Source of the DNA: Eledone cirrhosa
Taxonomy: Eukaryota
Length of the DNA stretch: 64,000 bases
Assembly (NCBI GenBank): GCA_964016885.1
Contig: OZ024744.1
Coordinates: 30,752,001 to 30,816,000, forward strand
Reading direction: 5' to 3'
Below, piece after piece: positions 1 through 26,787 of this stretch; position 1 is the stretch's first letter; each line of letters begins with the position of its first letter. Under the pieces are notes generated by a model. It was given only the letters and a program-made list of their open reading frames with translations, was not told where the DNA came from and made no database searches. A program made the position numbers and the translations under genes.

Positions 1-344
1 GTCCTGTAGAATCTCATCTATATTAACATTTTTGATACCCATATACCTGATGATTTCTAAAGAATGAAACAGTTCTAGTCCAGTATGAATCTCATCTATA
101 TAAAAAAATGTTGATACACAGATTCCTTATGATTTCTAAAGAATGAAACAGTTCTAGTCCGGTAGAATCTCATCTATATTAACATTTTTTTATACGCAGA
201 TTCCTGATGATTTCTAAAGAATGAAACATCTCTAGTCCTGTAGAACTTCATCTATATTAAAAATTTTTGATACCCAGATTCCTGATGATTTCTATAGAAT
301 GACACAGTTCTAGTCCTGTAGAATCTCATCTATATAAACATTTT

Positions 345-416
345 TTGATACCCAGATTCCTGATGATTTCTAAAGAATGAAACAGTTCTAGTCCTGTAGA
401 ATCTCATCTATATTAA
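345..416 (+). ncRNA. Putative hammerhead ribozyme motif, representative consensus monomer (repeated in most monomers)
   Basis: TTGATA(345-350)-CCC-AGATTC(354-359)-CTGATGA(360-366)-T-TTC-TAAA-GAA-T(367-378)-GAA(379-381)-ACAG(382-385)-TTCTAGTC-CTGT(394-397)-A398^-GAATCT(399-404)-CATCTA-TATTAA(411-416). All conserved core nucleotides and three helices lie in the correct order. Position 10.1-11.1 is U-U instead of the usual purine-pyrimidine pair. Confidence 0.8.
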
Positions 417-1365
417 AACTTTTGATACCCAGATTCCTGATGATTTCTAAAGAATGAAGCAGTTCTCGTCCTGTAGAATCTCATCTATATTAAAAATTTT
501 TGATACCCAGATTCCTGATGATTTCTAAAGAATGAAACAGTTCTAGTCCTGTAGAATCTCATCTATATTAACATTTTTTGACACCCAGATTCCTGATAAT
601 TTCTAAAGAATGAAACAGTTCTAGTCCTGTAGAATCTCATCTATATTAACATTTTTGATACCCATATACCTGATGATTTCTAAAGAATGAAACAGTTCTA
701 GTCCAGTATGAATCTCATCTATATAAAAAAATGTTGATACACAGATTCGTTATGATTTCTAAAGAATGAAACAGTTCTAGTCCGGTAGAATCTCATCTAT
801 ATTAACATTTTTTTATACGCAGATTCCTGATGATTTCTAAAGAATGAAACAGTTCTAGTCTTGTAGAATCTCATCTATATTAACATTTTTGATACCCAGA
901 TTCCTGATGATTTCTAAAGAATGAAACAGTTCTAGTCCTGTAAAATCTCATCTATATAAAAAAATGTTGATACACAGATTCCTTATGATTTCTAAAGAAT
1001 GAAATAGTTCTAGTCCTGTAGAATCTCATCTATATTAACATTTTTTGATGCCCAGATTCCTGATGATTTCTAAAGAATGAAACAGTTCTAGTCCTGTAGA
1101 ATCTCATTTATATTAAAATTTTTTGATACCCAGATTCCTGATGATTTCTAATGAATGAAACAGTTCTAGTCCTGTAGAATCTCATCTATATTAACATTTT
1201 TTGATAAGCAGATTCCTGATGATTTCTAAAGAATGAAACAGTTCTAGTCCTGTAGAATCTCTTCTATATTAATATTTTTTGATACGCAGATTCCTGATGA
1301 TTTCTAAAGAATGAAACAGTTCTAGTCCTGTAGAATCCCATCTATATTAACATTTTTTGATACCC

Positions 1366-1416
1366 AGATTCCTGATGAATTCTAAAGAATGAAACAGTTC
1401 TAGTACTGTAGAATCT
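1366..1416 (+). ncRNA. Fully paired hammerhead variant monomer (4-bp stem II, 5-bp stem III); second copy at 3471-3521
   Basis: AGATTC CTGATGA ATTC-TAAA-GAAT GAA ACAGT-TCTAGT-ACTGT A^ GAATCT. All three stems are Watson-Crick paired; predicted cleavage after A1410. Confidence 0.82.
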
Positions 1417-4400
1417 CATCTATATTAAAAATTTTTGATACCCAGATTCTTGATGATTTCTAAAGAATGAAACAGTTCTAGTCCGGTAGAATCTCATCTA
1501 TATTAAAATTTTTTTATACCCAGATTCCTGATCATTTCTAAAGAATGAAACAGTTCTAGTCCTGTAGAATCTCATCTATATTAACATTTTTGATACCCAG
1601 ATTCCTGATGATTTCTAAAGAATGAAACAGTTCTCGTCCTGTAGTATCTCATCTATATTAAAATTTTTTGATACCAGATTCCTGATAATTTCTAAAGAAT
1701 GAAACAGTTCTAGTCCTGTAGAATCTCATCTATATTAAAAATTTTTGATACCCAGATTCCTGATGATTTCTAAAGAATAAAACAGTTCTCGTCCTGTAGA
1801 ATCTCATCTATATTAAAAAATTTTGATACCCAGATTCCTGATGATTTCTAAAGAATAAAACAGTTCTAGTCCTGTAGAATCTCATCTATACTAAGAATTT
1901 TTGATACCCAGATTCCTGGTGATTTCTAAAGAATGAAACAGTTCTAGTCCTGTAGAATCTCATCTATATTAAAAAATTTTGATACCCAGATTCCTGATGA
2001 TTTCTAAAGAATGAAACAACTCTAGTCCTGTAGAACCTCATCTATATTAAAAATGTTTGATACCCAGATTCCTGATGATTTCTAAAGAATGAAACAGTTC
2101 TAGTCCTGTAGAATCTCATCTATATAAACATTTTTTGATACCCAGATTCCTGATGATTTCTAAAGAATGAAACAGTTCTAGTCCTGTAGAATCTCATCTA
2201 TATTAAAACTTTTGATACCCAGATTCCTGATGATTTCTAAAGAACGAAACAGTTCTAGTCCTGTAGATTCTCATCTATATAAAACATTTTTGATACCCAG
2301 ATTCCTGGTGATTTCTAAAGAATGAAACAGTTCTAGTCCTGTAGAATCTTATCTATATAAATATTTTTTGATACCCCCCAGATTCCTGATGATTTCTAAA
2401 GAATGAAACAGTTCTAGTCCTGTAGAATCTCATCTATATAAACATTTTTTGATACCCAGATTCCTGATGATTTCTAAAGAATGAAACAGTTCTAGTCCTG
2501 TAGAATCTCATCTATATTAACAATTTTTGATACCCAGATTCCCGATGATTTCTAAAGAATGAAACAGTTCTAGTCCTGTAGAATCTCATCTATATTAAAA
2601 TTTTTTGATACCCAGATTTGTGATAATTTCTAAAGAATGAAATAGTTCTAGTCCTGTAGAATCTCATCTATATTAACATTTTTTGATACCCAGATTCCTG
2701 ATGATTTCTAAAGAATGAAACAGTTCTAGTCCTGTAGAATCTCATCTATATTAAAAATGTTTGATACCCAGATTGCTGATGATTGCTAAAGAATGAAACA
2801 GTTCTAGTCCTGTAGAATCTCATCTATATTAACATATTTTGATACCCAGATGTCTGATGAATTCTAAAGAATGAAACAGTTCTAGTCCTGTAGAATCTCA
2901 TCTATATTAAAATTTTTGGATACCCAGATTGCTGATGATTTCTAAAGAATGAAACAGTTCTAGTCCTGTAGAATCTCATATATATTAACATTTTTTGACA
3001 CCCAGATTCCTGATGATTTCTAAAGAATGAAACAGTCCTAGTCGTGTAGAATCTCATCTATGTTAAACATTTGTGATACCCAGATTCCTGATGATTTCTA
3101 AAGAATGAAACAGTTCTAGTCCTGTCGAATATTATCTATATTAACATTTTTTGATACCCAGTTTCCTGATGATTTCTAATAAATGAAACAGTTCTAGTCC
3201 TGTAGAATCTCATCTATATTAACATTTTTCACACCCAGATACCTGATGATTTCTAAAGAATGAAACAGTTCTAGTCCTTTAGAATCTCATCTATATTAAC
3301 ATTTTTTGATAAGCAGATTCCTGATGATTTCTAAAGAATGAAACAGTTCTAGTCCTGTAGAATCTCTTCTATATTAATATTTTTTGATACGCAGATTCCT
3401 GATGATTTCTAAAGAATGAAACAGTTCTAGTCCTGTAGAATCTCATCTATATTAACATTTTTTGATACCCAGATTCCTGATGAATTCTAAAGAATGAAAC
3501 AGTTCTAGTACTGTAGAATCTCATCTATATTAAAAATTTTTGATACCCAGATTCTTGATGATTTTTAAAGAATGAAACAGTTCTAGTCCGGTAGAATCTC
3601 ATCTATATTAACATTTTTTTTTACCCAGATTCCTGATCATTTCTAAAGAATGAAACAGTTCTAGTCCTGTAGAATCTCATCTATATTAACATTTTTGATA
3701 CCCAGATTCCTGATGATTTCTAAAGAATGAAACAGTTCTCGTCCTGTAGTATCTCATCTATATTAAAATTTTTTGATACCAGATACCTGATAATTTCTAA
3801 AGAATGAAACAGTTCTAGTCCTGTAGAATCTCATCTATATTAAAAATTTTTGATACCCAGATTCCTGATGATTTCTAAAGAATAAAACAGTTCTCGTCCT
3901 GTAGAATCTCATCTATATTAAAAAATTTTGATACCCAGATTCCTGATGATTTCTAAAGAATAAAACAGTTCTAGTCCTGTAGAATCTCATCTATACTAAG
4001 AATTTTTGATACCCAGATTCCTGGTGATTTCTAAAGAATGAAACAGTTCTAGTCCTGTAGAATCTCATCTATATTAAAAAATTTTGATACCCAGATTCCT
4101 GATGATTTCTAAAGAATGAAACACCTCTAGTCCTGTAGAACCTCATCTATATTAAAAATGTTTGATACCCAGATTCCTGATGATTTCTAAAGAATGAAAC
4201 AGTTCTAGTCCTGTAGAATCTCATCTATATAAACATTTTTTGATACCCAGATTCCTGATGATTTCTAAAGAATGAAACAGTTCTAGTCCTGTAGAATCTC
4301 AACTACATTAAAACTTTTGATACCCAGATTCCTGATGATTTCTAAAGAACGAAACAGTTCTAGTCCTGTAGATTCTCATCTATATTAAACTTTTTTGATA

Positions 4401-4599
4401 CCTAGATTCCTGATAATTTCTAAAGAATGAAACAGTTCTAGTCCGGTAGAATCTCATCTATATTAATATTTTTTGATACGCAGATTCCTGATGATTTCTA
4501 AAGAATGAAACAGTTCTAGTCCTGTAGATTCTCATCTATATTAAACTTTTTTGATACCCAGATTCCTGATGATTTCTAAAGAATGAAACAGTTCTAGTC

Positions 4600-7260
4600 C
4601 TCTAGAATCTCATCTATATTAACATTTTTTGGATTCCCACATTCCTGACGATTTCTAAAGAATGAAACAGTTCTAGTCCTTTAGAATCTCATCCATATTA
4701 AAATTTTTTGATACCCAGATTCCTGATGATTTCTAAATAAATGAACAGTTCTAGTCCTGTAGAACCTCATCTATATTAACATTTTTTGATACCCAGATTC
4801 CTGATGATTTCTAAAGAATGAAACAGTTCTAGTCCTGTAGAATCTCATATATATTAACATTTTTTGACACCCAGATTCCTGATGATTTCTAAAGAATGAA
4901 ACAGTCCTAGTCGTGTAGAATCTCATCTATATTAAACATTTGTGATACCCAGATTCCTGATGATTTCTAAAGAATGAAACAGTTCTCGTCCTGTAGAATC
5001 TTATCTATATTAAAAAATTTTGATACCCAGATTCCTGATGTTATCTAAAGAATGAAACAGTTCTAGTCCTGTAAAATATCATCTATATTAAAATTTTTTG
5101 ATACCCAGTTTCCTGATGATTTCTAATGAATGAAAACAGTTCTAGTCCTGTAGAATCTCATCTATATTAACATTTTTTGACACCCAATATTCCTGATGAT
5201 TTCTAAAGAATGAAACAGTTCTAGTCCGGTAGAATCTCATGTATATTAAAATTTTTTGACACCCAGGTTCCTGATGATTTCTAAAGAATGAAATAGTTGT
5301 AGTTCAGTAGAATCTCATCTATATTAACACTTTTTGATACCCAGATTCCTGATGATTTCTAAAGAATGAAACAGTTCTAGTCCTGTAGAATCTCATCTAT
5401 ACTAAGAATTTTTGATACCCAGATTCCTGGTGATTTCTAAAGAATGAAACACTTCTAGTCCTGTAGAATCTCATCTATATTAAACATTTTTGATACCCAG
5501 ATTCCTGATGATTTCTAAAGAATGAAACATCTCTAGTCCTGTAGAACTTCATCTATATTAAAAATTTTTGATACCCAGATTCCTGATGATTTCTAAAGAA
5601 TGAAACAGTTCTAGTCCTGTAGAATCTCATCTATATAAACATTTTTTGATACCCAGATTCCTGATGATTTCTAAAGAATGAAACAGTTCTAGTCCTGTAG
5701 AATCTCATCTATATTAAAACTTTTGATACCCAGATTCCTGATGATTTCTAAAGAATGAAGCAGTTCTCGTCCTGTAGAATCTCATCTATATTAAAAATTT
5801 TTGATACCCAGATTCCTGATGATTTCTAAAGAATGAAACAGTTCTAGTCCTGTAGAATCTCATCTATATTAACATTTTTTGACACCCAGATTCCTGATAA
5901 TTTCTAAAGAATGAAACAGTTCTAGTCCTGTAGAATCTCATCTATATTAACATTTTTTGGATTCCCACATTCCTGACGATTTCTAAAGAATGAAACAGTT
6001 CTAGTCCTTTAGAATCTCATCCATATTAAAATTTTTTGATACCCAGATTCCTGATGATTTCTAAATAAATGAACAGTTCTAGTCCTGTAGAACCTCATCT
6101 ATATTAACATTTTTTGATACCCAGATTCCTGATGATTTCTAAAGAATGAAACAGTTCTAGTCCTGTAGAATCTCATATATATTAACATTTTTTGACACCC
6201 AGATTCCTGATGATTTCTAAAGAATGAAACAGTCCTAGTCGTGTAGAATCTCATCTATATTAAACATTTGTGATACCCAGATTCCTGATGATTTCTAAAG
6301 AATGAAACAGTTCTCGTCCTGTAGAATCTTATCTATATTAAACAATTTTGATACCCAGATTCCTGATGTTATCTAAAGAATGAAACAGTTCTAGTCCTGT
6401 AAAATATCATCTATATTAAAATTTTTTGATACCCAGTTTCCTGATGATTTCTAATGAATGAAAACAGTTCTAGTCCTGTAGAATCTCATCTATATTAACA
6501 TTTTTTGACACCCAATATTCCTGATGATTTCTAAAGAATGAAACAGTTCTAGTCCGGTAGAATCTCATGTATATTAACATTTTTTGACACCCAGGTTCCT
6601 GATGATTTCTAATGAATGAAATAGTTGTAGTTCAGTAGAATCTCATCTATATTAACACTTTTTGATACCCAGATTCCTGATGATTTCTAAAGAATGAAAC
6701 AGTTCTAGTCCTGTAGAATCTCATCTATACTAAGAATTTTTGATACCCAGATTCCTGGTGATTTCTAAAGAATGAAACACTTCTAGTCCTGTAGAATCTC
6801 ATCTATATTAAACATTTTTGATACCCAGATTCCTGATGATTTCTAAAGAATGAAACATCTCTAGTCCTGTAGAACTTCATCTATATTAAAAATTTTTGAT
6901 ACCCAGATTCCTGATGATTTCTAAAGAATGAAACAGTTCTAGTCCTGTAGAATCTCATCTATATAAACATTTTTTGATACCCAGATTCCTGATGATTTCT
7001 AAAGAATGAAACAGTTCTAGTCCTGTAGAATCTCATCTATATTAAAACTTTTGATACCCAGATTCCTGATGATTTCTAAAGAATGAAGCAGTTCTCGTCC
7101 TGTAGAATCTCATCTATATTAAAAATTTTTGATACCCAGATTCCTGATGATTTCTAAAGAATGAAACAGTTCTAGTCCTGTAGAATCTCATCTATATTAA
7201 CATTTTTTGACACCCAGATTCCTGATAATTTCTAAAGAATGAAACAGTTCTAGTCCTGTA
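4600..7260. repeat. Tandem duplication of a 17-monomer block (period ~1328 bp); boundaries approximate
   Basis: The rare variant GGATTCCCACATTCCTGACG occurs at 4631 and 5959 and is followed by the same variant series. Confidence 0.85.
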
Positions 7261-10200
7261 GAATCTCATCTATATTAAGATTTTTGATACCCAGATTCCT
7301 GATGATTTCTAAAGAATGAAGCAGTTCTAGTCCGGTAGAATCTCATATATATTAAAACTTTTGATACCCAGATTCCTGATGATTTCTAAGGAATGAAACA
7401 GTTCTAGTCCTGTAGAATCTCATCTATATTAATATTTTTTGATACCCAGAATCCTGATAATTTCTAAAGAATGAAACAGTTCTAGTCCTGTAGAATCTCA
7501 TCTATATTAACATTTTTCACACCCATATACCTGATGATTTCTAAAGAATGAAACAGTTCTAGTCCAGTATGAATCTCATCTATATAAAAAAATGTTGATA
7601 CACAGATTCCTTATGATTTCTAAAGAATGAAACAGTTCTAGTCCGGTAGAATCTCATCTATATTAACATTTTTTTATACGCAGCTTCCTGATGATTTCTA
7701 AAGAATGAAACAGTTCTAGTCTTGTAGAATCTCATCTATATTAACATTTTTGATACCCAGATTCCTGATGATTTCTAAAGAATGAAACAGTTCTAGTCCT
7801 GTAAAATCTCATCTATATAAAAAAATGTTGATACACAGATTCCTTATGATTTCTAAAGAATGAAATAGTTCTAGTCCTGTAGAATCTCATCTATATTAAC
7901 ATTTTTTGATGCCCAGATTCCTGATGATTTCTAAAGAATGAAACAGTTCTAGTCCTGTAGAATCTCATTTATATTAAAATTTTTTGATACCCAGATTCCT
8001 GATGATTTCTAATGAATGAAACAGTTCTAGTCCTGTAGAATCTCATCTATATTAACATTTTTTGACACCCAGATTCCTGATGATTTCTAAAGAATGAAAC
8101 AGTTGTAGTTCAGTAGAATCTCATCTATATTAACACTTTTTGATACCCAGATTCCTGATGATTTCTAAAGAATGAAACAGTTCTAGTCCTGTAGAATCTC
8201 ATCTATACTAAGAATTTTTGATACCCAGATTCCTGGTGATTTCTAAAGAATGAAACAGTTCTAGTCCTGTAGAATCTCATCTATATTAAACATTTTTGAT
8301 ACCAAGATTCCTGATGATTTCTAAAGAATGAAACACCTCTAGTCCTGTAGAACATCATCTATATTAAAAATTTTTGATACCCAGATTCCTGATGATTTCT
8401 AAAGAATGAAACAGTTCTAGTCCTGTAGAATCTCATCTATATTAAAGTTTTTTGATACCCAGATTCCTGATGATTTCTAAAGAATGAAACAGTTCTAGTC
8501 CTGTAGAATCTCATGTATATTAAAATTTTTCGATACCCAGATTCCTGATGATTTCTAAAGAATGAAACATTCTAGTCCTGTAGAATCTCATCTATATTAA
8601 AATTTTTTGATACGCAGATTCCTGATGATTTCTAAAGAATGAAACAGTTCTAGTCCTTTAGAATCTCACCTATATTAACATTTTTTGATACGCAGATTCC
8701 TGATGATTTCTAAAGAATGAAACAGTTCTAGTCCTGTAGAATCTCATCTATATTAACATTTTTCACACCCAGATACCTGATGATTTCTAAAGAATGAAAC
8801 AGTTCTAGTCCTGTAGAATCTCATCTATATAAAAAAATGTTGATACACAGATTCCTTATGATTTCTAAAGAATGAAACAGTTCTAGTCCTGTAGAATCTC
8901 ATCTATATTAACATTTTTTTATACCCAGATTCCTGATGATTTCTAAAGAATGAAACAGTTCTAGTCCTGTAGAATCTCATCTATATTAACATTTTTGATA
9001 CCCAGATTCCTGATGATTTCTAAAGAATGAAACAGTTCTAGTCCTGTAGAATCTCATCTAAATTAAAATATTTTGATACCCAGATTCCTGATAATTTCTA
9101 AAGAATGAAACAGTTCTAGTCCTGTAGAATCTCATCAATATTAAAAATTTTTGATACCCAGATTCCTGATGATTTCTAAAGAATGAAATAGTTCTAGTCC
9201 TGTAGAATCTCATCTATATTAACATTTTTTGATACCCAGATTCCTGATGATTTCTAAAGAATGAAACAGTTCTAGTCCTCTAGAATCTCATCTATATTAA
9301 CATTTTTGGATACCCAGATTCCTAATGATTTCTTAAGAATGAAACAGTTCTAGTCCTGTAGAACCTCATCTATATTAACATTTTTTGATACCCAGATTCC
9401 TTATGATTTCTAAAGAATGAAACAGTTCTAGTCCTGTAGAATCTCATCTATATTAAAATTTTTTGATACCCAGATTCCTGATGATTTCTAAAGAATGAAA
9501 CAGATCTAGTCCTGTAGAATCTCATATATATTAACATTTTTTGACACCCAGATTCCTGATGATTTCTAAAGAATGAAACAGTTCTAGTCGTGTAGAATCT
9601 CATCTATATTAAACATTTGTGATACCCAGATTCCTGATGATTTCTAAAGAATAAAACCGTTCTCGTCCTGTAGAATCTCATTTATAATAAACATTTTGAT
9701 ACCCAGATTCCTGATGATTTCTAAAGAATGAAACAGTTCTAGTCCTGTAGAATCTCATCTATACTAAGAATTTTTGATACCCAGATTCCTGGTGATTTCT
9801 AAAGAATGAAACAGTTCTAGTCTTGTAGAATCTCATCTATATTAAAATTTTCTCATACCCAGATTCCTGATGATTTCTAAAGAATGAAACATTCTAGTCC
9901 TGTAGAGTCTCATCTATATTAACATTTTTTGAAACCCAGATTCCTGATGATTTCTAAAGAATGAAACAGTTCTAGTCCTGTAGAACCTCATCTATATTAA
10001 AATTTTTGGATACCCAGATTCCTGATGATTTCTAAAGAATGAAACAGTTCTAGTCCTGTAGAATCTCATCTATATTAACATTTTTCACACCCAGATACCT
10101 GATGATTTCTAAAGAATGAAACAGTTCTAGTCCTGTAGATTCTCATCTATATAAAAAAATGTTGATACACAGATTCCTTATGATTTCTAAAGAATGAAAC

Positions 10201-13200
10201 AGTTCTAGTCCTGTAGAATCTCATCTATATTAACATTTTTTTATACCCAGATTCCTGATGATTTCTAAAGAATGAAACAGTTCTAGTCCTGTAGAATCTC
10301 ATCTATATTAAAATTTTTTGATACCCAGATTCTTGATAATTTCTAAAGAATGAAACAGTTCTAGTCCTGTAGAATCTCATCAATATTAAAAATTTTTGAT
10401 ACCCAGATTCCTGATGATTTCTAAAGAATGAAATAGTTCTAGTCCTGTAGAATCTCATCTATATTAACATTTTTGATACCCAGATTCCTGATGATTTCTA
10501 AAGAATGAAACAGTTCTAGTCCTCTAGAATCTCATCTATATTAACATTTTTTGAAACCCAGATTCCTGATGATTTCTAAAGAATGAAACAGTTCTAGTCC
10601 TGTAGAATCTCATCTATATTAAAATTTTTGGATACCCAGATTCCTGATGATTTCTTAAGAATGAAACAGTTCTAGTCCTGTAGAACCTCATCTATATTAA
10701 CATTTTTTGATACCCAGATTCCTGATGATTTCTAAAGAACGAAACAGATCTAGTCCTGTAGAATCTCATATATATTAACATTTTTTGACACCCAGATTCC
10801 TGATGATTTCTAAAGAATGAAACAGTCCTAGTCGTGTAGAATCTCATCTATATTAATATTTTTTGATACGCAGATTCCTGATGATTTCTAAAGAATGAAA
10901 CAGTTCTAGTCCTGTAGAATCTCATCTATATTAACATTTTTGACACCCAGATACCTGATGATTTCTAAAGAATGAAACATTTCTAGTCCTGTAGAATCTC
11001 ATCTATATAAAAAATTTTTGATACACAGATTCCTTATGATTTCTAAAGAATGAAACAGTACTAGTCCGGTAGAATCTCATCTATATTAACATTTTTTGAT
11101 ACCCAGATTCCTGATGATTTCTAAAGAATGAAACAGTTCTAGTCCTGTAGAATCTCATCAATATTAAAAATTTTTGATACCCAGATTCCTGATGATTTCT
11201 AAAGAATGAAATAGTTCTAGTCCTGTAGAATCTCATCTATATTAACATTTTTGATACCCAGATTCCTGATGATTTCTAAAGAATGAAACAGTTCTAGTCC
11301 TCTAGAATCTCATCTATATTAACATTTTTTGAAACCCAGATTCCTGATGATTTCTAAAGAATGAAACAGTTCTAGTCCTGTAGAATCTCATCTATATTAA
11401 AATTTTTGGATACCCAGATTCCTGATGATTTCTTAAGAATGAAACAGTTCTAGTCCTGTAGAATCTCATCTATATTAACATTTTTTGACACCCAGATTCC
11501 TGATGATTTCTAAAGAATGAAACAGTCCTAGTCGTGTAGAATCTCATCTATATTAAACATTTGTGATACCCAGATTCCTGATGATTTCTAAAGAATAAAA
11601 CCGTTCTCGTCCTGTAGAATCTCATTTATAATAAAAAATTTTGATACCCAGATTCCTGATGATTTCTAAAGAATGAAACAGTTCTAGTCCTGTAGAATCT
11701 CATCTATACTAAGAATTTTTGATACCCAGATTCCTGGTGATTTCTAAAGAATGAAACAGTTCTAGTCCTGTAGAATCTCATCTATATTAACATTTTTTGA
11801 TACCCAGATTCCTGATGATTTCTAAAGAATGAAACAGTTCTAGTCTTGTAGAATCTCATCTATATTAAAATTTTCTCATACCCAGATTACTGATGATTTC
11901 TAAAGAATGAAACATTCTAGTCCTGTAGAATCTCATCTATATTAACATTTTTTGATACGCAGATTCCTGATGATTTCTAAAGAATGAAACAGTTCTAGTC
12001 CTTTAGAATCTCATCTATATTAACATTTTTTGATACGCAGATTCCTGATGATTTCTAAAGAATGAAACAGTTCTAGTCCTGTAGAATCTCATCTATATAA
12101 AAATATTTTGATACACAGATTCCTTATGATTTCTAAAGAATGAAACAGTTCTAGTCTTGTAGAATCTCATCTATATTAAAATTTTCTAATACCCTGATTC
12201 CTGATGATTTCTAAAGAATGAAACAGTTCTAGTCCTCTAGAATCTCATCTATATTAACATTTTTTGAAACCCAGATTCCTGATGATTTCTAAAGAATGAA
12301 ACAGTTCTAGTCCTGTAGAATCTCATCTATATTAAAATTTTTCGATACCCAGATTCCTGATGATTTCTTAAGAATGAAACAGTTCTAGTCCTGTAGAACC
12401 TCATCTATATTAACATTTTTTGATACCCAGATTCCTGATGATTTCTAAAGAACGAAACAGATCTAGTCCTGTAGAATCTCATATATATTAACATTTTTTG
12501 ACACCCAGATTCCTGATGATTTCTAAAGAATGAAACAGTCCTAGTCGTGTAGAATCTCATCTATATTAATATTTTTTGATACGCAGATTCCTGATGATTT
12601 CTAAAGAATGAAACAGTTCTAGTCCTGTAGAATCTCATCTATATTAACATTTTTGACACCCAGATACCTGATGATTTCTAAAGAATGAAACATTTCTAGT
12701 CCTGTAGAATCTCATCTATATAAAAAATTTTTGATACACAGATTCCTTATGATTTCTAAAGAATGAAACAGTACTAGTCCGGTAGAATCTCATCTATATT
12801 AACATTTTTTGATACCCAGATTCCTGATGATTTCTAAAGAATGAAACAGTTCTAGTCCTGTAGAATCTCATCTATATAAAAAAATGTTGATACACAGATT
12901 CCTTATGATTTCTAAAGAATGAAACAGTTCTAGTCCTGTAGAATCTCATCTATATTAACATTTTTTTATACCCAGATTCCTGATGATTTCTAAAGAATGA
13001 AACAGTTCTAGTCCTGTAGAATCTCATCAATATTAAAAATTTTTGATACCCAGATTCCTGATGATTTCTAAAGAATGAAATAGTTCTAGTCCTGTAGAAT
13101 CTCATCTATATTAACATTTTTGATACCCAGATTCCTGATGATTTCTAAAGAATGAAACAGTTCTAGTCCTCTAGAATCTCATCTATATTAACATTTTTTG

Positions 13201-16200
13201 AAACCCAGATTCCTGATGATTTCTAAAGAATGAAACAGTTCTAGTCCTGTAGAATCTCATCTATATTAAAATTTTTGGATACCCAGATTCCTGATGATTT
13301 CTTAAGAATGAAACAGTTCTAGTCCTGTAGAACCTCATCTATATTAACATTTTTTGACACCCAGATTCCTGATGATTTCTAAAGAATGAAACAGTCCTAG
13401 TCGTGTAGAATCTCATCTATATTAAACATTTGTGATACCCAGATTCCTGATGATTTCTAAAGAATAAAACCGTTCTCGTCCTGTAGAATCTCATTTATAA
13501 TAAAAAATTTTGATACCCAGATTCCTGATGATTTCTAAAGAATGAAACAGTTCTAGTCCTGTAGAATCTCATCTATACTAAGAATTTTTGATACCCAGAT
13601 TCCTGGTGATTTCTAAAGAATGAAACAGTTCTAGTCCGGTAGAATCTCATCTATATAAAAAAATCTTGATACCCAGATTCCTGATGATTTCTAAAGAATG
13701 AAACAGTTCTAGTCTTGTAGAATCTCATCTATATTAAAATTTTCTCATACCCAGATTCCTGATGATTTCTAAAGAATGAAACATTCTAGTCCTGTAGAAT
13801 CTCATCTATATTAACATTTTTTGATACGCAGATTCCTGATGATTTCTAAAGAATGAAACAGTTCTAGTCCTTTAGAATCTCATCTATATTAACATTTTTT
13901 GATACGCAGATTACTGATGATTTCTAAAGAATGAAACAGTTCTAGTCCTGTAGAATCTCATCTATATAAAAATATTTTGATACACAGATTCCTTATGATT
14001 TCTAAAGAATGAAACAGTTCTAGTCTTGTAGAATCTCATCTATATTAAAATTTTCTAATACCCAGATTCCTGATGATTTCTAAAGAATGAAACAGTTCTA
14101 GTCCTGTAGAATCTCATCTATATTAACATTTTTTGATACGCAGCTTCCTGATGATTTCTAAAGAATGAAACAGTTCTAGTCCTTTAGAATCTCATCTATA
14201 TTAACATTTTTTGATACGCAGATTCCTGATGATTTCTAAAGAATGAAACAGTTCTAGTCCTGTAGAATCTCATCTATATAAAAAAATTTTGATACACAGA
14301 TTCCTTATGATTTCTAAAGAATGAAACAATTCTAGTCCGGTAGAATCTCATCTATATTAACATTTTTTGATACCCAGATTCCTGATGATTTCTAAAGAAT
14401 GAAACAGTTCTAGTCCTGTAGAATCTCATCTATATTAACATTTTTTGATACCCAGATTCCTGATGATTTCTAAAGAATGAAACATTTCTAGTCCTGTAGA
14501 ATCTCATCTATATTAACATTTTTTGATACCCAGATTCCTGATGATTTCTTAAGAATGAAACAGTTCTAGTCCTGTAGAATCTCATCTATATTAACATTTT
14601 TTGACACCCAGATTCCTGATAATTTCTAAAGAATGAAGCAGTTCTAGTCCTGTAGAATCTCATCTATATTAACATTTTTCACACCCAGATACCTGATGAT
14701 TTCTAAAGAATGAAACAGTTCTAGTCCTGTAGAATCTCATCAATATAAAAAAATGTTGATACACAGATTCCTTATGATTTCTAAAGAATGAAACAGTTCT
14801 AGTCCTGTAGAATCTCATCTATATTAACATTTTTTTATACCCAGATTCCTGATGATTTCTAAAGAATGAAACAGTTCTAGTCCTGTAGAATCTCATCTAT
14901 ATTAACATTTTTGATACCCAGATGTCTGATGATTTCTAAAGAATGAAACAGTTCTAGTCCGGTAGAATCTCATCTATATAAACATTTTTTGAAACCCAGA
15001 TTCCTGATGATTTCTAAAGAATGAAACAGTTCTAGTCCTGTAGAACCTCAACTATATTAACATTTTTTGATACCCAGATTCCTGATGATTTCTAAAGAAT
15101 GAAACAGTCCTAGTCGTGTAGAATCTCATCTATATTAACATTTTTTGATACCCAGATTCCTGAATATTTCTAAAGAATGAAACAGTTCTAGTCGTGTAGA
15201 ATCTCATCTATATTAAACATTTGTGATACCCAGATTCCTGATGATCTCTAAAGAATAAAACCGTTCTCGTCCTGTAGAATCTCATCTATATTAACATTTT
15301 TTGATACCCAGATTCCTGAATATTTCTAAAGAATGAAACAGTTCTAGTCGTGTAGAATCTCATCTATATTAAACATTTGTGATACCCAGATTCCTGATGA
15401 TCTCTAAAGAATAAAACAGTTCTAGTCCTGTAGAATCTCATCTATAATAAAAAATTTTGAGACCCAGATTCCTGATGATTTCTAAAGAATGAAACAGTTC
15501 TAGTGTTGTAGAATCTCATCTATACTAAGAATTTTTGATACCCAGATTCCTGGTGATTTCTAAAGAATGAAACAGTTCTAGTCCTGAAGAATCTCATCTA
15601 TATAAAAAAATCTTGATACCCAGATTCCTGATGATTTCTAAAGAATGAAACAGTTCTAGTCTTGTAGAATCTCATCTATATCAAAATTTTCTGATACCCA
15701 GATTCCTGATGATTTCTAAAGAATGAAAGATTCTAGTCCTGTAGAATCTCATCTTTATTAACATTCTTTGATACGCAGATTCCTGATGATTTCTAAAGAA
15801 TGAAACAGTTCTAGTCCTTTAGAATCTCATCTATATTAACATTTTTTGATACGCAGATTCCTGATGATTTCTAAAGAATGAAACAGTTCTAGTCCTGTAG
15901 AATCTCATCTATATTAATATTTTTTGATACGCAGATTCCTGATGATTTCTAAAGAATGAAACAGTTCTAGTCCTGTAGAATCTCATCTATATTAACATTT
16001 TTTGATACCCAGATTCCTGATGAATTCTAAAGAATGAAACAGTTCTAGTCCTGTAGAATCTCATCTATAATAAAAAATGTTGATACCCACATTCTTGATG
16101 ATTTCTAAAGAATGAAACAGTTCTAGTCCTGTAGAATCTCATCTATATTAAAAATTTTTGATACCCAGATTCTTGATGATTTCTAAAGAATGAAACAGTT

Positions 16201-17132
16201 CTAGTCCTGTAGAATCTCATCTATATTAACATTTTTGACACCCAGATACCTGATGATTTCTAAAGAATGAAACAGTTCTAGTCCGGTAGAATCTCATCTA
16301 TATTAACATTTTTTGATACCCAGATTCCTGATGATTTCTAAAGAATGAAACAGTTCTAGTCCTGTAGAATCTCATCTATATTAACATTTTTTGATACCCA
16401 GATTCCTGATGATTTCTAAAGAATGAAACAGTTCTAGTCCTGTAGAATCTCATCTATATTAACATTTTTTGATACCCAGATTCCTGGTGATTTCTTAAGA
16501 ATGAAACAGTTCTAGTCCTGTAGAATCTCATCTATATTAACATTTTTTGACACCCAGATTCCTGGTGATTTCTAAAGAATGAAACAGTTCTAGTCCTGTA
16601 GAATCTCATCTATATTAACATTTTTCACACCCAGATACCTGATGATTTCTAAAGAATGAAACAGTTCTAGTCCTGTAAAATCTCATCTATATAAAAAAAT
16701 GTTGATACACAGATTCCTTATGATTTCTAAAGAATGAAACAGTTCTAGTCCTGTAGAATCAAATCTATATTAAAAATTTGTTGATACCCAGATTCCTGAT
16801 GATTTCTAAAGAATGAAACAGTTCTAGTCCTGTAGAATCTCATCTATATTAACATTTTTTGATACCCAGATTCGTGATAATTTCTAAAGAATGAAACAGT
16901 TCTAGTCCTGTAGAATCTCATCTATATTAACATTCTTTGATATCCAGATTGCTGATGATTTCTAAAGAATGAAACAGTTCTAGTCCTGTAGAATCTCATC
17001 TATATTAAAATTTGTTGATACCCAGATTCCTGATGATTTCTAAAGAATGAAACAGTTCTAGTCCTGTAGAATCTCATCTATATTAAAAATTTTTGATACC
17101 CAGATTCCTGTTGATTTCTAAAGAATGAAACA

Positions 17133-17379
17133 TAGGTGTCACGACAAAAAAACACACATTCCACACTGTAATGTGGCCGTGTAGGCAACACAGTAAAAAT
17201 CTCCCAGACCCACACTGTAAATGTGCTTGGTGTTAGGAAGGGCATCCAACTGTAGAAAACCTGCCAGACAGTCCTATGCGAGCAAGACAATCACTCTTGC
17301 CTCAAGTGGGACTACCCCCGTCCAAACCCATGCAAGCGTGGAACACGGACGTTAAACATTGATGATGATGATGATGATG
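17133..17379 (+). mobile_element. Non-autonomous RTE-type SINE-like retroposon, copy 1 (divergent), 247 bp
   Basis: Non-satellite, more GC-rich sequence ending in GGACGTTAAACATT(GAT)n and flanked by ATGAAACA (17125-17132) and ATGAAATA (17380-17387). The motifs GGTGTTAGGAAGGGCATCC and CCCATGCAAGCGTGGAACACGGACGTTAAA resemble RTE-derived SINE bodies and tails as I recall them (not database-checked). Confidence 0.8.
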
Positions 17380-18416
17380 ATGAAATAGTTCTAGTCCTGT
17401 AGAATCTCATGTATATTAATATTTTTTGATACCCAGATTCCTGATAATTTCTAAAGAAGGAAACAGTTCTAGTCCTGTAGAATCTCATCTATATTAAAAA
17501 ATTTTGATACCCAGATTCCTTATGATTTCTAAAGAATGAAACAGTTCTAGTCCTGTAGAATCTCATCTATATTAACATTTTTTGATACCCAGATTCCTGA
17601 TGATTTCTAAAGAATGAAACAGTTCTAGTCCTGTAGAATCTCATCTATATTAACATTTTTTGATACCCAGATTCCTGATGATTTCTAAAGAATGAAACAG
17701 TTCTAGTCCTGTAGAATGTCATCTATATTAAAATTTTTGGATACCCAGATTCCTGATGATTTCTAAAGAATGAAACAGTTCTAGTCCTTTAGAATCTCAT
17801 CCATATTAAAATTTTTTGATACCCAGATTCCTGATGATTTCTAAAGAATGAAACAGCTCTAGTCCTGTAGAACCTCATCTATATTAACATTTTTTGATAC
17901 CCAGATTCCTGATGATTTCTAAAGAATGAAACAGTTCTAGTCCTGTAGAATCTCATATACATTAACATTTTTTGACACCCAGATTCCTGATGATTTCTAA
18001 AGAATGAAACAGTTCTAGTCCTGTAGAATCTCATCTATATTAACATTTTTTGACACCCAGATTCCTGATAATTTCTAAAGAATGAAACAGTTCTAGTCCT
18101 GTAGAATCTCATCTATATTAACATTTTTGATACCCAGATTCCTGATAATTTCTAAAGAATGAAACAGTTCTAGTCCTGTAGAATCTCATCTATATTAACA
18201 TTTTTGATACCCAGATTCCTGATGATTTCTAAAGAATGAAACAGTTCTAGTCCTGTAGAATCTCATCTATATTAACATTTTTCACACCCAGATACCTGAT
18301 GATTTCTAAAGAATGAAACAGTTCTAGTCCTGTAGAATCTCATCTATATAAAAAAATGTTGATACACAGAATCCTTATGATTTCTAAAGAATGAAACAGT
18401 TCTAAAGAATGAAATA

Positions 18417-18663
18417 TAGGTGTCACCACAAAAAAACACACAGTCCACGCTGTAAAGTGGCCGTGTAGGCAACACGGTAAAGACCTCCCAGACCCACACT
18501 GTAAATGTGGTTGGTGTTAGGAAGGGCATCCAACTGTAGAAAACCTGCCAGACAGTCCTATGCGAGCAAGACAATCACTCTTGCCTCAAGTGGGACTACC
18601 CCCGTCCAAACCCATGCAAGCGTGGAACACGGACGTTAAACGTTGAAGGTGATGATGATGATG
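18417..18663 (+). mobile_element. SINE-like insert copy 2 (subtype B), 247 bp
   Basis: Same element; TSD ATGAAATA/ATGAAACA; preceded by an 18-bp satellite duplication. Confidence 0.8.
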
Positions 18664-20231
18664 ATGAAACAGTTCTAGTCGTGTAGAATCTCATCTATAT
18701 TAAAATTTTTTGATACCCAGATTCCTGATAATTTCTAAAGAATGAAACAGTTCTAGTCCTTTAGAATTTCATCCATATTAAAAATTTTTGATACCCAGAT
18801 TCCTGATGATTTCTAAAGAATGAAACAGTTTTAGTCCTGTAGAATCTCATCTATATTAAAATTTGTGACACCCAGATTCCTGATGATTTCTAAAGAATGA
18901 AACAGTTGTAGTTCAGTAGAATCTCATCTATATTAAAATTTTTTGAAACCCACATTCCTGATGATTTCTAAAGAATGAAACAGTTCTAGTCCTGTAGAAT
19001 CTCATCTATACTAATAATTTTTGATACCCAGATTCCTGGTGATTTCTAATGAATGAAACAGTTCTAGTCCTGTAGAATCTCATCTATATTCAAAATTTTT
19101 GATACCCAGATTCCTGATGATTTCTAAAGAATGAAACACCTCTAGTCCTTTAGAACCTCATCTATTTTAACATTTTTTGACACCCAGATTCCTGATGATT
19201 TCTAAAGAATGAAACAGTTCTAGTACTGTAGAATCTCATGTATACTAAAAATTTTTGATACCCAGATTCCTGATGATTTCTAAAGAATGAACTAGTTCTA
19301 GTCCTGTAGAATCTCATCTATATTAACACTTTTTGATACCCAGATTCCTGATGATTTCTAAAGAATGAAACAGTTCTAGTCCTGTAGAATCTCATCTATA
19401 TTAACATTTTTTGATACCCAGATTCCTGATGATTTCAAAAATAATGAAACAGTTCTAGTCCTGTAGAATCTCATCTATATTAAAATTTTTGGATACCCAG
19501 ATTCCTGATGATTTCTAAAGAATGAAACAGTTCTAGTCCTTTAGAATCTCATCCATATTAAAAATTTTTGATACCCAGATTCCTGATAATTTCTAAAGAA
19601 TGAAACAGTTCTAGTCCTGTAGAATCTCATCTATATTAAAAATTCTTGATACCCAGATTCCTGATGATTTCTAAAGAATGAAACAGTTCTAGTCCTGTAG
19701 AATCTCATTTATATTAACATTTTTTGACACCCAGATTCCTGATGATTTCTAAAGAATGAAACAGTTCTAGTACTGTAGAATCTCATCTAAACTAAACATT
19801 TTTGATACCCAGATTCCTGATGATTTCTAAAGAATGAACCAGTTCTAGTCCTGTAGAATCTCATCTATATTAAAATTTGTTGATACCCAGATTCCTGATG
19901 ATTTCTAAAGAATGAAACAGTTCTAGTCCTGTAGAATCTCATCTATATTAAAATTTTTTGATACCCAGATTCCTGATGATTTCTAAAGAATGAAACAGTT
20001 CTAGTCCTGTAGAATATCATCTATATTAAAAATATTTGATACCCAGATTACTGATGATTTCTAAAGAATGAAACAGTTCTAGTCCTGTAGAATCTCATCT
20101 ATATTAAAATTTGTTGATACCCAGATTCCTGATGATTTCTAAAGAATGAAACAGTTCTAGTCCTGTAGAATCTCATCTATATTAAAAATTTTTGATACCC
20201 AGATTCCTGATGATTTCTAAAGAATGAAACA

Positions 20232-20466
20232 TAGGTGTCACGACAAAAAAACACACAGTCCACACTGTAATGTGGCCGTGTAGGCAACACGGTAAAAACC
20301 TCCCAGACCCACACTGTAGATGTGGTTGGTGTTAGGAAGGGCATCCAACTGTAGAAAACCTGCCAGACAGTCCTATGCGAGCAAGACAATCACTCTTGCC
20401 TCAAGTGGGACTACCCACGTCCAAACCCATGTAAGCGTGGAACACGGACGTTAAACGTTGATGATG
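20232..20466 (+). mobile_element. SINE-like insert copy 3 (subtype A), 235 bp
   Basis: Perfect TSD ATGAAACA at 20224-20231 and 20467-20474; short (GAT)n tail. Confidence 0.8.
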
Positions 20467-22283
20467 ATGAAACAGTTCTAGTCGTGTAGAATCTCATCTA
20501 TATTAAAATTTTTTGACACCCAGATTCCTGATCATTTCCAAAGAATGAAACAGTTCTAGTCCGGTAGAATCTCATCTATATTAAAATTTGTTGATACCCA
20601 GATTCCTGATGATTTCTAAAGAATGAAACAGTTCTTGTCCTTTAGAATCTCATCCATATTAAAATTTTTTGTTACCCAGATTCCTGATAATTTCTAAAGA
20701 ATGAAACAGTTCTAGTCCTGTAGAATCTCATCTATATTAAAATTTTTTGATACCCAGATTCCTGATAATTTCTAAAGAATGAAACAGTTCTAGTATTGTA
20801 GAATCTCATCTATATTAAAAATTTTTGATACCCAGATTCCTGATGATTTCTAAAGTATGAAACAGTTCTAGTCCTGTAGAATCTCATCTATATTAACATT
20901 TTTTGATACCCAGATTCCTGATGATTTCTAAAGAATGAAACAGTTCTAGTCCTGTAGAATCTCATCTATATTAAAATTTTTGGATACCCATATTCCTGAT
21001 GATTTCTATAGAATGAAACAGTTCTAGTCCTGTAGAATCTCATCTATATTAAAATTTTTTGATACCCAGATTCCTGATGATTTCTAAAGAATGAAACAGT
21101 TCTAGTCCTGTAGATTCTCATGTATATTAAAATTTTTTAATACCCAGATTCCTGATGATTTCTAAAGAATGAAACAGTTCTAGTCCTGTAGAATGTCATC
21201 TATACTAAAATTTTTTGATACCCAGATTCCTGGTGATTTCTTAAGAATGAAACAGTTCTAGTCCTGTAGAATCTCATCTATATTAAAATTTTTTGATACC
21301 CAGATTCCTGATGATTTCTAAAGAATGAAACAGTTCTAGTCCTGTAGAATCTCATCTACATTAAAATTTTTTGATACCCAGATTCCTGATGATTTCTAAA
21401 GAATGAAACAGCTCTAGTCCTGTAGAATCTCATCTATATTAAAAATTTTTGATACCCACATTCCTGATGATTTCTAAAGAATGAAACAGTTCTAGTCCTG
21501 TAGAATCTCATCTATACTAATAATTTTTGATACCCAGATTCCTGGTGATTTCTAAAGAATGAAACAGTTCTAGTCCTGTAGAATCTCATCTATATTAAAA
21601 TTTTGTGACACCCAGATTCCTGATGATTTCTAAAGAATAAAACAGTTGTAGTTCAGTAGAATCTCATCTATATTAGAATTTTTTGATACCCACATTCCTG
21701 ATGATTTCTAAAGAATGAAACAGTTCTAGTCCTGTAGAACCTCATCTATATTAACATTTTTTGATACCCAGATTCCTGATGATTTCTAAAGAATGAAACA
21801 GTTCTAGTCCTGTAGAATCTCATATACATTAACATTTTTTGACACCCAGATTCCTGATGATTTCTAAAGAATGAAACAGTTCTAGTCCTGTAGAATCTCA
21901 TCTATATTAACATTTTTTGACACCCAGATTCCTGATAATTTCTAAAGAATGAAACAGCTCTAGTCCTGTAGAATCTCATCTATATTAACATTTTTGATAC
22001 CCAGATTCCTGATAATTTCTAAAGAATGAAACAGTTCTAGTCCTGTAGAATCTCATCTATATTAACATTTTTGATACCCAGATTCCTGATGATTTCTAAA
22101 GAATGAAACAGTTCTAGTCCTGTAGAATCTCATCTATATTAACATTTTTCACACCCAGATACCTGATGATTTCTAAAGAATGAAACAGTTCTAGTCCTGT
22201 AGAATCTCATCTATATAAAAAAATGTTGATACACAGAATCCTTATGATTTCTAAAGAATGAAACAGTTCTAAAGAATGAAATA

Positions 22284-22530
22284 TAGGTGTCACCACAAAA
22301 AAACACACAGTCCACGCTGTAAAGTGGCCGTGTAGGCAACACGGTAAAGACCTCCCAGACCCACACTGTAAATGTGGTTGGTGTTAGGAAGGGCATCCAA
22401 CTGTAGAAAACCTGCCAGACAGTCCTATGCGAGCAAGACAATCACTCTTGCCTCAAGTGGGACTACCCCCGTCCAAACCCATGCAAGCGTGGAACACGGA
22501 CGTTAAACGTTGATGGTGATGATGATGATG
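22284..22530 (+). mobile_element. SINE-like insert copy 4 (subtype B), 247 bp
   Basis: Near-identical to copy 2, with the same junctions. Confidence 0.8.
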
Positions 22531-24488
22531 ATGAAACAGTTCTAGTCGTGTAGAATCTCATCTATATTAAAATTTTTTGATACCCAGATTCCTGATGATT
22601 TCTAAAGAATGAAACAGTTCTAGTCCTTTAGAATCTCATCCATATTAAAAATTTTTGATACCCAGATTCCTGATGATTTCTAAAGAATGAAACAGTTTTA
22701 GTCCTGTAGAATCTCATCTATATTAAAATTTGTGACACCCAGATTCCTGATGATTTCTAAAGAATGAAACAGTTGTAGTTCAGTAGAATCTCATCTATAT
22801 TAAAATTTTTTGAAACCCACATTCCTGATGATTTCTAAAGAATGAAACAGTTCTAGTCCTGTAGAATCTCATCTATACTAATAATTTTTGATACCCAGAT
22901 TCCTGGTGATTTCTAAAGAATGAAACAGTTCTAGTCCTGTAGAATCTCATCTATATTCAAAATTTTTGATACCCAGATTCCTGATGATTTCTAAAGAATG
23001 AAACACCTCTAGTCCTTTAGAACCGCATCTATATTAACATTTTTTGACACCCAGATTCCTGATGATTTCTAAAGAATGAAACAGTTCTAGTACTGTAGAA
23101 TCTCATCTATACTAAAAATTTTTGATACCCAGATTCCTGATGATTTCTAAAGAATGAACTAGTTCTAGTCCTGTAGAATCTCATCTATATTAACACTTTT
23201 TGATACCCAGATTCGTGATGATTTCTAAAGAATGAAACAGTTCTAGTCCTGTAGAATCTCATCTATATTAACATTTTTTGATACCCAGATTCCTGATGAT
23301 TTCAAAAATAATGAAACAGTTCTAGTCCTGTAGAATCTCATCTATATTAAAATTTTTGGATACCCAGATTCCTGATGATTTCTAAAGAATGAAACAGTTC
23401 TAGTCCTTTAGAATCTCATCCATATTAAAAAATTTTGATACCCAGATTCCTGATAATTTCTAAAGAATGAAACAGTTCTAGTCCTGTAGAATCTCATCTA
23501 TATTAAAAATTCTTGATACCCAGATTCCTGATGATTTCTAAAGAATGAAACAGTTCTAGTCCTGTAGAATCTCATTTATATTAACATTTTTTGACACCCA
23601 GATTCCTGATGATTTCTAAAGAATGAAACAGTTCTAGTAATGTAGAACCTCATCTAAACTAAACATTTTTGATACCCAGATTCCTGATGATTTCTAAAGA
23701 ATGAACCAGTTCTAGTCCTGTAGAATCTCATCTATATTAACACTTTTTGATACCCAGATTCCTGATGATTTCTAAAGAATGAAACAGTTCTAGTCCTGTA
23801 GAATCTCATCGATATTAAAATTTTTTGATACCCAGATTCCTGATGATTTCTAAATAATGAAACAGTTCTAGTCCTGTAGAATCTCATCTATATTAAAATT
23901 TTTGGATACCCAGATTCCTGATGATTTCTAAAGAATGAAACAGTTCTAGTCCGGTAGAATCTCATCTATATTAACATTTTTTGATACCCAGATTCCTGAT
24001 GATTTCTAAAGAATGAAACAGTTCTAGTCCTGTAGAATCTCATCTATATTAACATTTTTTGATACCCAGATTCCTGATGATTTCCAAAGAATGAAACAGT
24101 TCTAGTCCGGTAGAATCTCATCTATATTAAAATTTGTTGATACCCAGATTCCTGATGATTTCTAAAGAATGAAACAGTTCTAGTCCTGTAGAATCTCATC
24201 TATATTAAAATTTTTTGATACCCAGATTCCTGATGATTTCTAAAGAATGAAACAGTTCTAGTCCTGTAGAATATCATCTATATTAAAAATATTTGATACC
24301 CAGATTACTGATGATTTCTAAAGAATGAAACAGTTCTAGTCCTGTAGAATCTCATCTATATTAAAATTTGTTGATACCCAGATTCCTGATGATTTCTAAA
24401 GAATGAAACAGTTCTAGTCCTGTAGAATCTCATCTATATTAAAAATTTTTGATACCCAGATTCCTGATGATTTCTAAAGAATGAAACA

Positions 24489-24723
24489 TAGGTGTCACGA
24501 CAAAAAAACACACAGTCCACACTGTAATGTGGCCGTGTAGGCAACACGGTAAAAACCTCCCAGACCCACACTGTAGATGTGGTTGGTGTTAGGAAGGGCA
24601 TCCAACTGTAGAAAACCTGCCAGACAGTCCTATGCGAGCAAGACAATCACTCTTGCCTCAAGTGGGACTACCCACGTCCTAACCCATGTAAGCGTGGAAC
24701 ACGGACGTTAAACGTTGATGATG
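24489..24723 (+). mobile_element. SINE-like insert copy 5 (subtype A), 235 bp
   Basis: Near-identical to copy 3, 4257 bp downstream of it. Confidence 0.8.
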
Positions 24724-26540
24724 ATGAAACAGTTCTAGTCGTGTAGAATCTCATCTATATTAAAATTTTTTGATACCCAGATTCCTGATGATTTCCAAAG
24801 AATGAAACAGTTCTAGTCCGGTAGAATCTCATCTATATTAAAATTTGTTGATACCCAGATTCCTGATGATTTCTAAAGAATGAAACAGTTCTTGTCCTTT
24901 AGAATCTCATCCATATTAAAATTTTTTGTTACCCAGATTCCTGATAATTTCTAAAGAATGAAACAGTTCTAGTCCTGTAGAATCTCATCTATATTAAAAT
25001 TTTTTGATACCCAGATTCCTGATAATTTCTAAAGAATGAAACAGTTCTAGTATTGTAGAATCTCATCTATATTAAAAATTTTTGATACCCAGATTCCTGA
25101 TGATTTCTAAAGTATGAAACAGTTCTAGTCCTGTAGAATCTCATCTATATTAACATTTTTTGATACCCAGATTCCTGATGATTTCTAAAGAATGAAACAG
25201 TTCTAGTCCTGTAGAATCTCATCTATATTAAAATTTTTGGATACCCATATTCCTGATGATTTCTATAGAATGAAACAGTTCTAGTCCTGTAGAATCTCAT
25301 CTATATTAAAATTTTTTGATACCCAGATTCCTGATGATTTCTAAAGAATGAAACAGTTCTAGTCCTGTAGATTCTCATGTATATTAAAATTTTTTAATAC
25401 CCAGATTCCTGATGATTTCTAAAGAATGAAACAGTTCTAGTCCTGTAGAATGTCATCTATACTAAAATTTTTTGATACCCAGATTCCTGGTGATTTCTTA
25501 AGAATGAAACAGTTCTAGTCCTGTAGAATCTCATCTATATTAAAATTTTTTGATACCCAGATTCCTGATGATTTCTAAAGAATGAAACAGTTCTAGTCCT
25601 GTAGAATCTCATCTACATTAAAATTTTTTGATACCCAGATTCCTGATGATTTCTAAAGAATGAAACAGCTCTAGTCCTGTAGAATCTCATCTATATTAAA
25701 AATTTTTGATACCCACATTCCTGATGATTTCTAAAGAATGAAACAGTTCTAGTCCTGTAGAATCTCATCTATACTAATAATTTTTGATACCCAGATTCCT
25801 GGTGATTTCTAAAGAATGAAACAGTTCTAGTCCTGTAGAATCTCATCTATATTAAAATTTTGTGACACCCAGATTCCTGATGATTTCTAAAGAATAAAAC
25901 AGTTGTAGTTCAGTAGAATCTCATCTATATTAGAATTTTTTGATACCCACATTCCTGATGATTTCTAAAGAATGAAACAGTTCTAGTCCTGTAGAACCTC
26001 ATCTATATTAACATTTTTTGATACCCAGATTCCTGATGATTTCTAAAGAATGAAACAGTTCTAGTCCTGTAGAATCTCATATACATTAACATTTTTTGAC
26101 ACCCAGATTCCTGATGATTTCTAAAGAATGAAACAGTTCTAGTCCTGTAGAATCTCATCTATATTAACATTTTTTGACACCCAGATTCCTGATAATTTCT
26201 AAAGAATGAAACAGCTCTAGTCCTGTAGAATCTCATCTATATTAACATTTTTGATACCCAGATTCCTGATAATTTCTAAAGAATGAAACAGTTCTAGTCC
26301 TGTAGAATCTCATCTATATTAACATTTTTGATACCCAGATTCCTGATGATTTCTAAAGAATGAAACAGTTCTAGTCCTGTAGAATCTCATCTATATTAAC
26401 ATTTTTCACACCCAGATACCTGATGATTTCTAAAGAATGAAACAGTTCTAGTCCTGTAGAATCTCATCTATATAAAAAAATGTTGATACACAGAATCCTT
26501 ATGATTTCTAAAGAATGAAACAGTTCTAAAGAATGAAATA

Positions 26541-26787
26541 TAGGTGTCACCACAAAAAAACACACAGTCCACGCTGTAAAGTGGCCGTGTAGGCAACACG
26601 GTAAAGACCTCCCAGACCCACACTGTAAATGTGGTTGGTGTTAGGAAGGGCATCCAACTGTAGAAAACCTGCCAGACAGTCCTATGCGAGCAAGACAATC
26701 ACTCTTGCCTCAAGTGGGACTACCCCCGTCCAAACCCATGCAAGCGTGGAACACGGACGTTAAACGTTGATGGTGATGATGATGATG
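26541..26787 (+). mobile_element. SINE-like insert copy 6 (subtype B), 247 bp
   Basis: Near-identical to copy 4, 4257 bp downstream of it. Confidence 0.8.

Follow-up and report, generated by a model that had tools for sequence, protein, structure and literature searches.

A 377-kb hammerhead satellite of Eledone cirrhosa that probably arose from the terminal repeat of a Penelope-like element

Type I hammerhead ribozymes with a palindromic stem III region are described in the terminal repeats of Penelope-like elements, including those of the (TA)n-targeting, hammerhead-bearing Hydra clade (PMC4209133; PMC8557442), whose insertions form inverted, truncated arms with a tail on one end. Terminal repeats of this kind are also the origin of the animal non-LTR retrozymes, which consist of tandem units with one type I hammerhead each and whose circles, as far as they are shown in PMC7229834, measure about 170-400 nt and derive from many loci. 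Other hammerheads are satellite-borne; those of newt satellite 2 and similar dimer-cleaving systems, with transcribed units of ~330 bp, are cleaved more readily if two copies pair to build stem III (PMC7229834; PMC6765202). Hammerhead tandems derived from Penelope-like ends have been reported with consensus lengths of 51-972 bp and up to 300 units, and local amplification from one inserted end has been proposed for them in the available part of that study (bioRxiv 10.64898/2026.07.22.740005).

The array analyzed here is of the latter kind but far longer. The window, i.e., the entire stretch of 64,000 nt under study (1..64000, plus strand), consists entirely of a 78-bp satellite in 819 copies and represents the interior of an array of ~377 kb (G000:C28:30,496,540-30,873,730). 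This array comprises ~4,800 copies, against the maximum of 300 given in the part of the preprint available; the 4,744 units that could be parsed are all on the same strand. Every unit in the window follows the motif pattern CUGAUGA, GAAA, and GUA^, although individual copies are mutated. Like the retrozymes, the array has tandem units with one type I hammerhead motif each and an origin in a Penelope-like terminal repeat; its unit has only 78 bp, less than those of the retrozymes shown and of the newt-type satellites, and, unlike the retrozymes, occurs at two loci. A literature search, confined largely to freely accessible text, yielded no description of a 78-nt hammerhead circle or of this satellite.

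The unit corresponds to bases -58 to +20 about the cleavage site in the terminal repeat of a Penelope-like element (hereafter the parent), which bears out the link to such repeats in the original prediction. In the 3.0-Gb genome, 8,084 sites match a 29-nt core pattern exactly (5,249 plus, 2,835 minus); 2,489 of them fall into the array and a second, 7.5-unit tandem on C1, leaving ~5,600 dispersed matches. Sixty dispersed loci in the first 68 Mb of C1 yielded 93 copies with common flanks, which end in (TA)n and in many cases form back-to-back pairs in (TA)n. Their 3' ends lie at +15 to +22 (51 of 93) or +86 to +94 (32 of 93), and six have their 5' ends at -56 to -59, although the 5' ends seen are biased because the loci were chosen by the core pattern.

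The frame downstream of one dispersed copy has 85 scored matches in the genome, with 81-100% identity and in many cases 758 open codons, and a hammerhead is situated just 5' of the long frame at nine of the ten loci fetched for the best protein matches. Three natural 758-codon frames, read by eye against PMC8557442, contain the motifs of the Hydra clade, namely an RWK-like motif (RWR), DKT, a CxCx5C linker, and GIY-YIG at the C-terminus. The parent has a single frame of less than 3 kb and shares with this clade also the (TA)n targets, the inverted, truncated arms with a tail on one end, and the type I hammerhead with its palindromic stem III region in the terminal repeat (PMC4209133; PMC8557442). 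A Pfam search of 12 frames hit none of the parent's but only two unrelated RVT_1 frames; the homologue P0076 matches RVT_1 at 9e-6. Judged by these sequence features, the parent is a young Hydra-clade Penelope-like element. Its tail is longer than quoted for Penelope-like elements in the accessible text (~70 bp vs. 30-40 bp). Other loci (L104-L133) contain no fewer than two additional Hydra-like families, whose open frames have 714 and 719 codons.

All 36 parent copies checked (L047, L063, and others) have a TATA-like box (TATAAA) at -75 to -82. The 78-bp unit lacks this box, so that any RNA of the array would depend on read-through. Parent copies also carry CCAGATT at -47 to -41, which we take to be initiator-like, and 27 of the 93 dispersed 5' ends pile up at -44 to -46, in part owing to the search pattern, which starts at -44. 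Together, pile-up and motif may mean that transcription starts with the first stem I base.

Type I hammerheads have a core with the consensus CUGANGA, GAAA, and UH. A hammerhead of this type is predicted for the 78-bp unit, and its details are best described in the copy on which the original prediction was based (399..475; positions in the hammerhead numbered as in PMC3088659). The 5' end of this monomer is set by the predicted GUA^ of the preceding 78-bp unit (321..398), whose core is intact. The three stems can indeed close, but the predicted closed monomer of 78 nt is in this copy only 77 nt long, because base 476 already starts the next unit. The stem I strand 3' of the cleavage site (GAAUCU, 399..404; parent +1 to +6) pairs over 6 bp with the monomer's own AGAUUC 5' of the core (431..436; parent -45 to -40), exactly as predicted, and RNAfold recovers the closed stem I in this copy. 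Stem I is extended by the pairing of UAUUAAA with UUUGAUA into a distal hairpin (411..427), whose loop (about 417-421) contains the satellite-specific junction of parent +20 with parent -58. The core bases C3-A9 (CUGAUGA, 437..443) are followed by stem II (444..455), which starts with a U10.1-U11.1 mismatch and consists of 3 bp (UUC/GAA) over the loop UAAA. The core bases G12-A15.1 (456..459) precede stem III with U16.1-A17 (GUA^) at 460..475, where, in intact units, CAG/CUG pairs in addition to A15.1-U16.1. The 16-nt segment of stem III is self-complementary around CUAG in most units; the copy at 399..475 has CUCG.

The motif and the pairings of the original prediction are present in the copy at 399..475, but its core is mutated: it has GAAG instead of GAAA, has lost the conserved A15.1, and falls outside the type I core consensus. 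This is exceptional, as GAAA is absent from only 36 of the 790 aligned units of the window. Across the array, 3,630 of the 4,744 units have an intact core, and 1,796 have an intact core together with all three stems. The mismatch at the base of stem II replaces the G10.1-C11.1 pair and sets the unit apart from Penelope-like hammerheads, which begin stem II with G-C, but it is a tolerated natural variant (PMC3088659) and is shared with the axolotl HHR_Amex2. The unit also differs from minimal Penelope-like hammerheads, as far as these are described in the sources available, by its longer stem III (3 bp and an 8-nt loop). A T-to-A change at unit position 47 (67 of 790 units in the window) converts the basal U-U of stem II to an A-U pair; this variant is probably a passenger of amplification. 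GUA is found at natural hammerhead cleavage sites, where it is cleaved more slowly than GUC (PMC1636495).

No Rfam family reached the gathering score in the window, and relaxing the search to E values up to 10 on two other pieces (L047 with a parent copy, L053 from the right edge of the array) retrieved no hammerhead family; the evidence for a hammerhead therefore comes from the motif, from the pairings, and from its location within a Penelope-like terminal repeat. The stems are near-identical between the two subfamilies compared for covariation, and a search of other Hydra families, which covered 30 loci by pattern and 8 by upstream scan, gave no clear hammerhead. Among predicted dimeric hammerheads of Xenopus, eight of nine showed no cleavage, according to the available part of the preprint (bioRxiv 10.64898/2026.07.22.740005).

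The monomer was originally described as poised to self-ligate. Fold energies speak against this wording but are compatible with activity, as the energy model leaves out tertiary contacts and Mg. Folding of four monomers shows no gain over shuffled sequences (z 0.26 to 0.46 in all four). In all six common intact variants, the hammerhead conformer lies above the minimum, by 1.4-2.6 kcal/mol in the linear and by 3.4-4.5 kcal/mol in the circular monomer, and the pairing probability of stem II is 0.00-0.22.

All three circular permutations of the hammerhead are present in the array, but all rotations of a unit occur in any tandem array, and this part of the prediction is a trivial outcome of tandem repetition. 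More informative are the energies predicted for multimers. In three natural trimers, the type I fold (~-13 kcal/mol) and the plain type III fold (~-15 kcal/mol) contrast with a type III fold with palindromic extension of stem III (~-26 kcal/mol in all three); type II equals an inactive chain of local hairpins (-18 to -19 kcal/mol). The self-complementary segment of stem III contributes -12.8 as a duplex with a second copy vs. -1.4 as a lone hairpin, and the minimum-energy folds of the trimers (-37 to -41) retain the inter-unit duplex with a misfolded core. The closure of stem I in cis is predicted to compete with the type I fold of the parent. If the array were read through, these models suggest that cleavage would likely proceed mainly via an inter-unit stem III (type III or dimer-like) rather than via type I; dimer-like cleavage has been described for Penelope-like hammerheads (PMC4209133; PMC6765202). 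A monomer released in this way would close itself inefficiently, and the resulting circle would be able to cut itself open again.

The only bond of the unit that is new with respect to the parent connects +20 to -58, at the open far end of the extended stem I. Cleavage and re-ligation restore the bond between -1 and +1, which already exists in the parent. Since the new bond is located away from the cleavage site and beyond the chemistry of the hammerhead, a self-ligated circle cannot have been the first step. The evidence is best explained if the unit originated from the terminal repeat of the parent, was joined head-to-tail once in a two-armed insertion at this locus, and then expanded to ~4,800 copies like an ordinary satellite, with no need for a self-ligated circle; we consider this scenario probable. 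It builds on the identity of unit and parent, the intact frames of the parent, the place at which the junction lies, its restriction to two loci, the inverted end on the left, and core mutations that spread through the array. We infer that the reverse transcriptase of the element, copying an uncleaved transcript, would have copied as far as -58 and restarted at +20 to +22. The two positions lie opposite one another at the open end of the extended stem I; they have a common near-repeat, TTTT(G)ATAC, and match the usual short 3' end of the element. Two units would then have been enough for unequal exchange. The founding copy number is unrecoverable and leaves room for a short rolling step.

The left edge of the array starts with (TA)n, followed by an inverted end of the parent that reaches +91 and includes the junction, a palindromic center, and the forward array, which is the shape of a two-armed insertion of the parent family. 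The tail (+21 to +91) occurs only here in the fetched array; because it is absent from a 78-nt circle, at least the left arm must have had a longer template. Both the position of the junction and the tail of the founding insertion speak against the proposed seeding of the satellite by a self-ligated circle of 78 nt. Of 145 bases in the left arm, only 1 deviates from the most similar of four parent copies, whereas the units are 3% off their consensus, and the left edge could therefore have formed later than the array.

At its right edge, the array breaks off within a unit and is fused to a 422-bp hammerhead repeat. No transposon end was found at this edge, so that the second arm is inferred only, which weakens the two-armed scenario. 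The repeat comprises 2.8 copies (L053:2733-3894; G000:C28:30,873,732-30,874,893) on the strand of the array and ends in (TA)n; its unit has a type I hammerhead motif with a minimal stem III. As its copies are near-identical (1 of 738 bases differs), it is likely a later insertion that eliminated the original end of the array. The neighbors of the array are an 18-bp satellite on the left (L018:1-5342) and an 80-bp satellite on the right (L053:8578-10000).

Two patterns spanning the junction have 1,640 and 2,094 matches in the genome, none of them on the minus strand. The fetched pieces of the array and the 7.5-mer on C1 account for 1,635 and 2,090 of these, and the few left over fit matches split at piece borders. 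The satellite junction is thus confined to two loci, both on the plus strand, whereas a mobile retrozyme would give many loci on both strands. Although the array consists of tandem units with a type I hammerhead motif each, it does not qualify as a retrozyme, because dispersed insertions at many loci were searched for and not found. The dispersed insertions of the 78-mer that had been anticipated are limited to the single 7.5-mer, which shows microhomology at its right end but neither (TA)n nor a transposon end. It contains five distinct units among six, and five of the six carry the A19C variant common in the array. In our reading, it is array DNA that was captured elsewhere. A search of the array for the source segment found none; the best ordered match has 16 differences, vs. 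14 to the consensus, and as the array commonly contains 136 of the 210 alleles possible, the sharing of alleles is weak evidence for the source.

The idea of a small circle can be extended by the missing first step. A mini-element with an internal deletion (+20 to -58) could have released 78-nt monomers, to be circularized by the ribozyme or a host ligase, and the reverse transcriptase of the element would have rolled round the circle and produced the first run of copies. The unit would be the cleavage-to-cleavage monomer of such a deletion, and all three stems are able to close, but neither a source copy nor dispersed offspring turned up in the genome-wide search by junction patterns. Rolling copying of circles has been proposed for retrozymes and Penelope-like elements (PMC7229834; PMC4209133). 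The left arm, however, requires a tail that is missing from the circle, and the units of the 7.5-mer are heterogeneous, whereas a single circle would give identical ones. The absence of the parent's TATA-like box from the unit also counts against this route, as does the low rate of self-ligation: the retrozyme monomers of axolotl and mussel circularize by themselves to 3% and about 1%, vs. over 80% and about 30% with RtcB, and the authors favor a host ligase (PMC7229834). A small closed monomer, in which a single fold keeps the two ends in place, may ligate better, but an intact circle could be cleaved again. On balance, the mini-element is an unlikely source.

A private tandem at another locus (L046:3730-4420, minus strand) consists of ~3 turns of a 222-bp unit that stems from the terminal region of the same Penelope-like family; the unit has one boundary close to -58, its 3' end is close to +91, and its exact junction occurs only there. 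As a private mini-tandem of the same family that resembles rolling on a small circle, it lends some weight to the mini-element and detracts from the insertion scenario, but it is itself a better candidate for mini-circle rolling than the 78-mer. That a 78-nt circle of a single hammerhead domain was the rolling template on which a Penelope-like reverse transcriptase made the first copies of the satellite, which would make the array a retrozyme caught at birth and the circle about the smallest possible with three stems, is likewise improbable. If true, such circles would be less than half as large as those shown for animal retrozymes in PMC7229834; their junction sequence would be identical to that of the tandem, and short reads would not separate the two.

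A further possibility is that the host keeps the array for an RNA function, e.g., self-processed satellite transcripts at a centromere-like region. The array is situated among other satellites, and the number of units with an intact core (with or without all three stems) is high, but this is the share that 3% divergence gives. The core is slightly more conserved (2.4% divergence) than the stems (3.1%) and the unpaired non-core sites (3.2%; positions 19-26 excluded), albeit without significance (base-matched P=0.26; P=0.28 on 1,266 distinct units) in a test that is weak because the units of an array are not independent. Changes at C3, G5, A6, G8, and G12 have spread in the array, with G8 changed in 7.3% of the 4,744 units, and SINE-like inserts were amplified together with the units. 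Nothing hints at maintenance of the core, which suggests that a host function is very improbable.

The SINE-like insert (~250 bp) has a (GAT)n tail and is co-amplified with the satellite as a higher-order repeat, with seven inserts in the window between 17069 and 29003 (the first at ~17133-17382). There are three lineages, which are 7-8 of 225 bases apart; two longer, reversed copies near the right end of the array (L052, L053) differ from the lineages by 3-5 bases and form the center of a star. Among the changes in distinct units, transversions prevail (2,029 vs. 1,278 transitions). Together with the contrast between the divergence of the units and that of the left arm, this may indicate quicker mutation within the array; a search for traces of RNA editing among the 3,307 changes found no enrichment of A>G (199).

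The least probable reading is a purely DNA-born tandem, formed by slippage at the near-repeat in an inserted copy and with no role of reverse transcriptase in the junction: the TTTT(G)ATAC near-repeat does flank the unit in the parent, and the junction often varies in the length of its poly-T, but the inverted arm and the first forward unit both carry the junction and have the same stop in the palindromic center, which links the origin of the junction to the insertion event or to repair of the insertion.

In this array, the hammerhead domain alone became a 377-kb satellite, a fate that sets it apart from the Penelope-like and Hydra-clade elements described in the available text of PMC4209133 and PMC8557442. 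The array represents a clear and traceable birth of a large satellite from the end of a retrotransposon, with the parent, the junction, and one edge of the insertion still readable. Its junction, located where the ribozyme fold brings distant positions together, is a natural substrate for asking whether RNA structure guides the jumps of Penelope-like reverse transcriptases.
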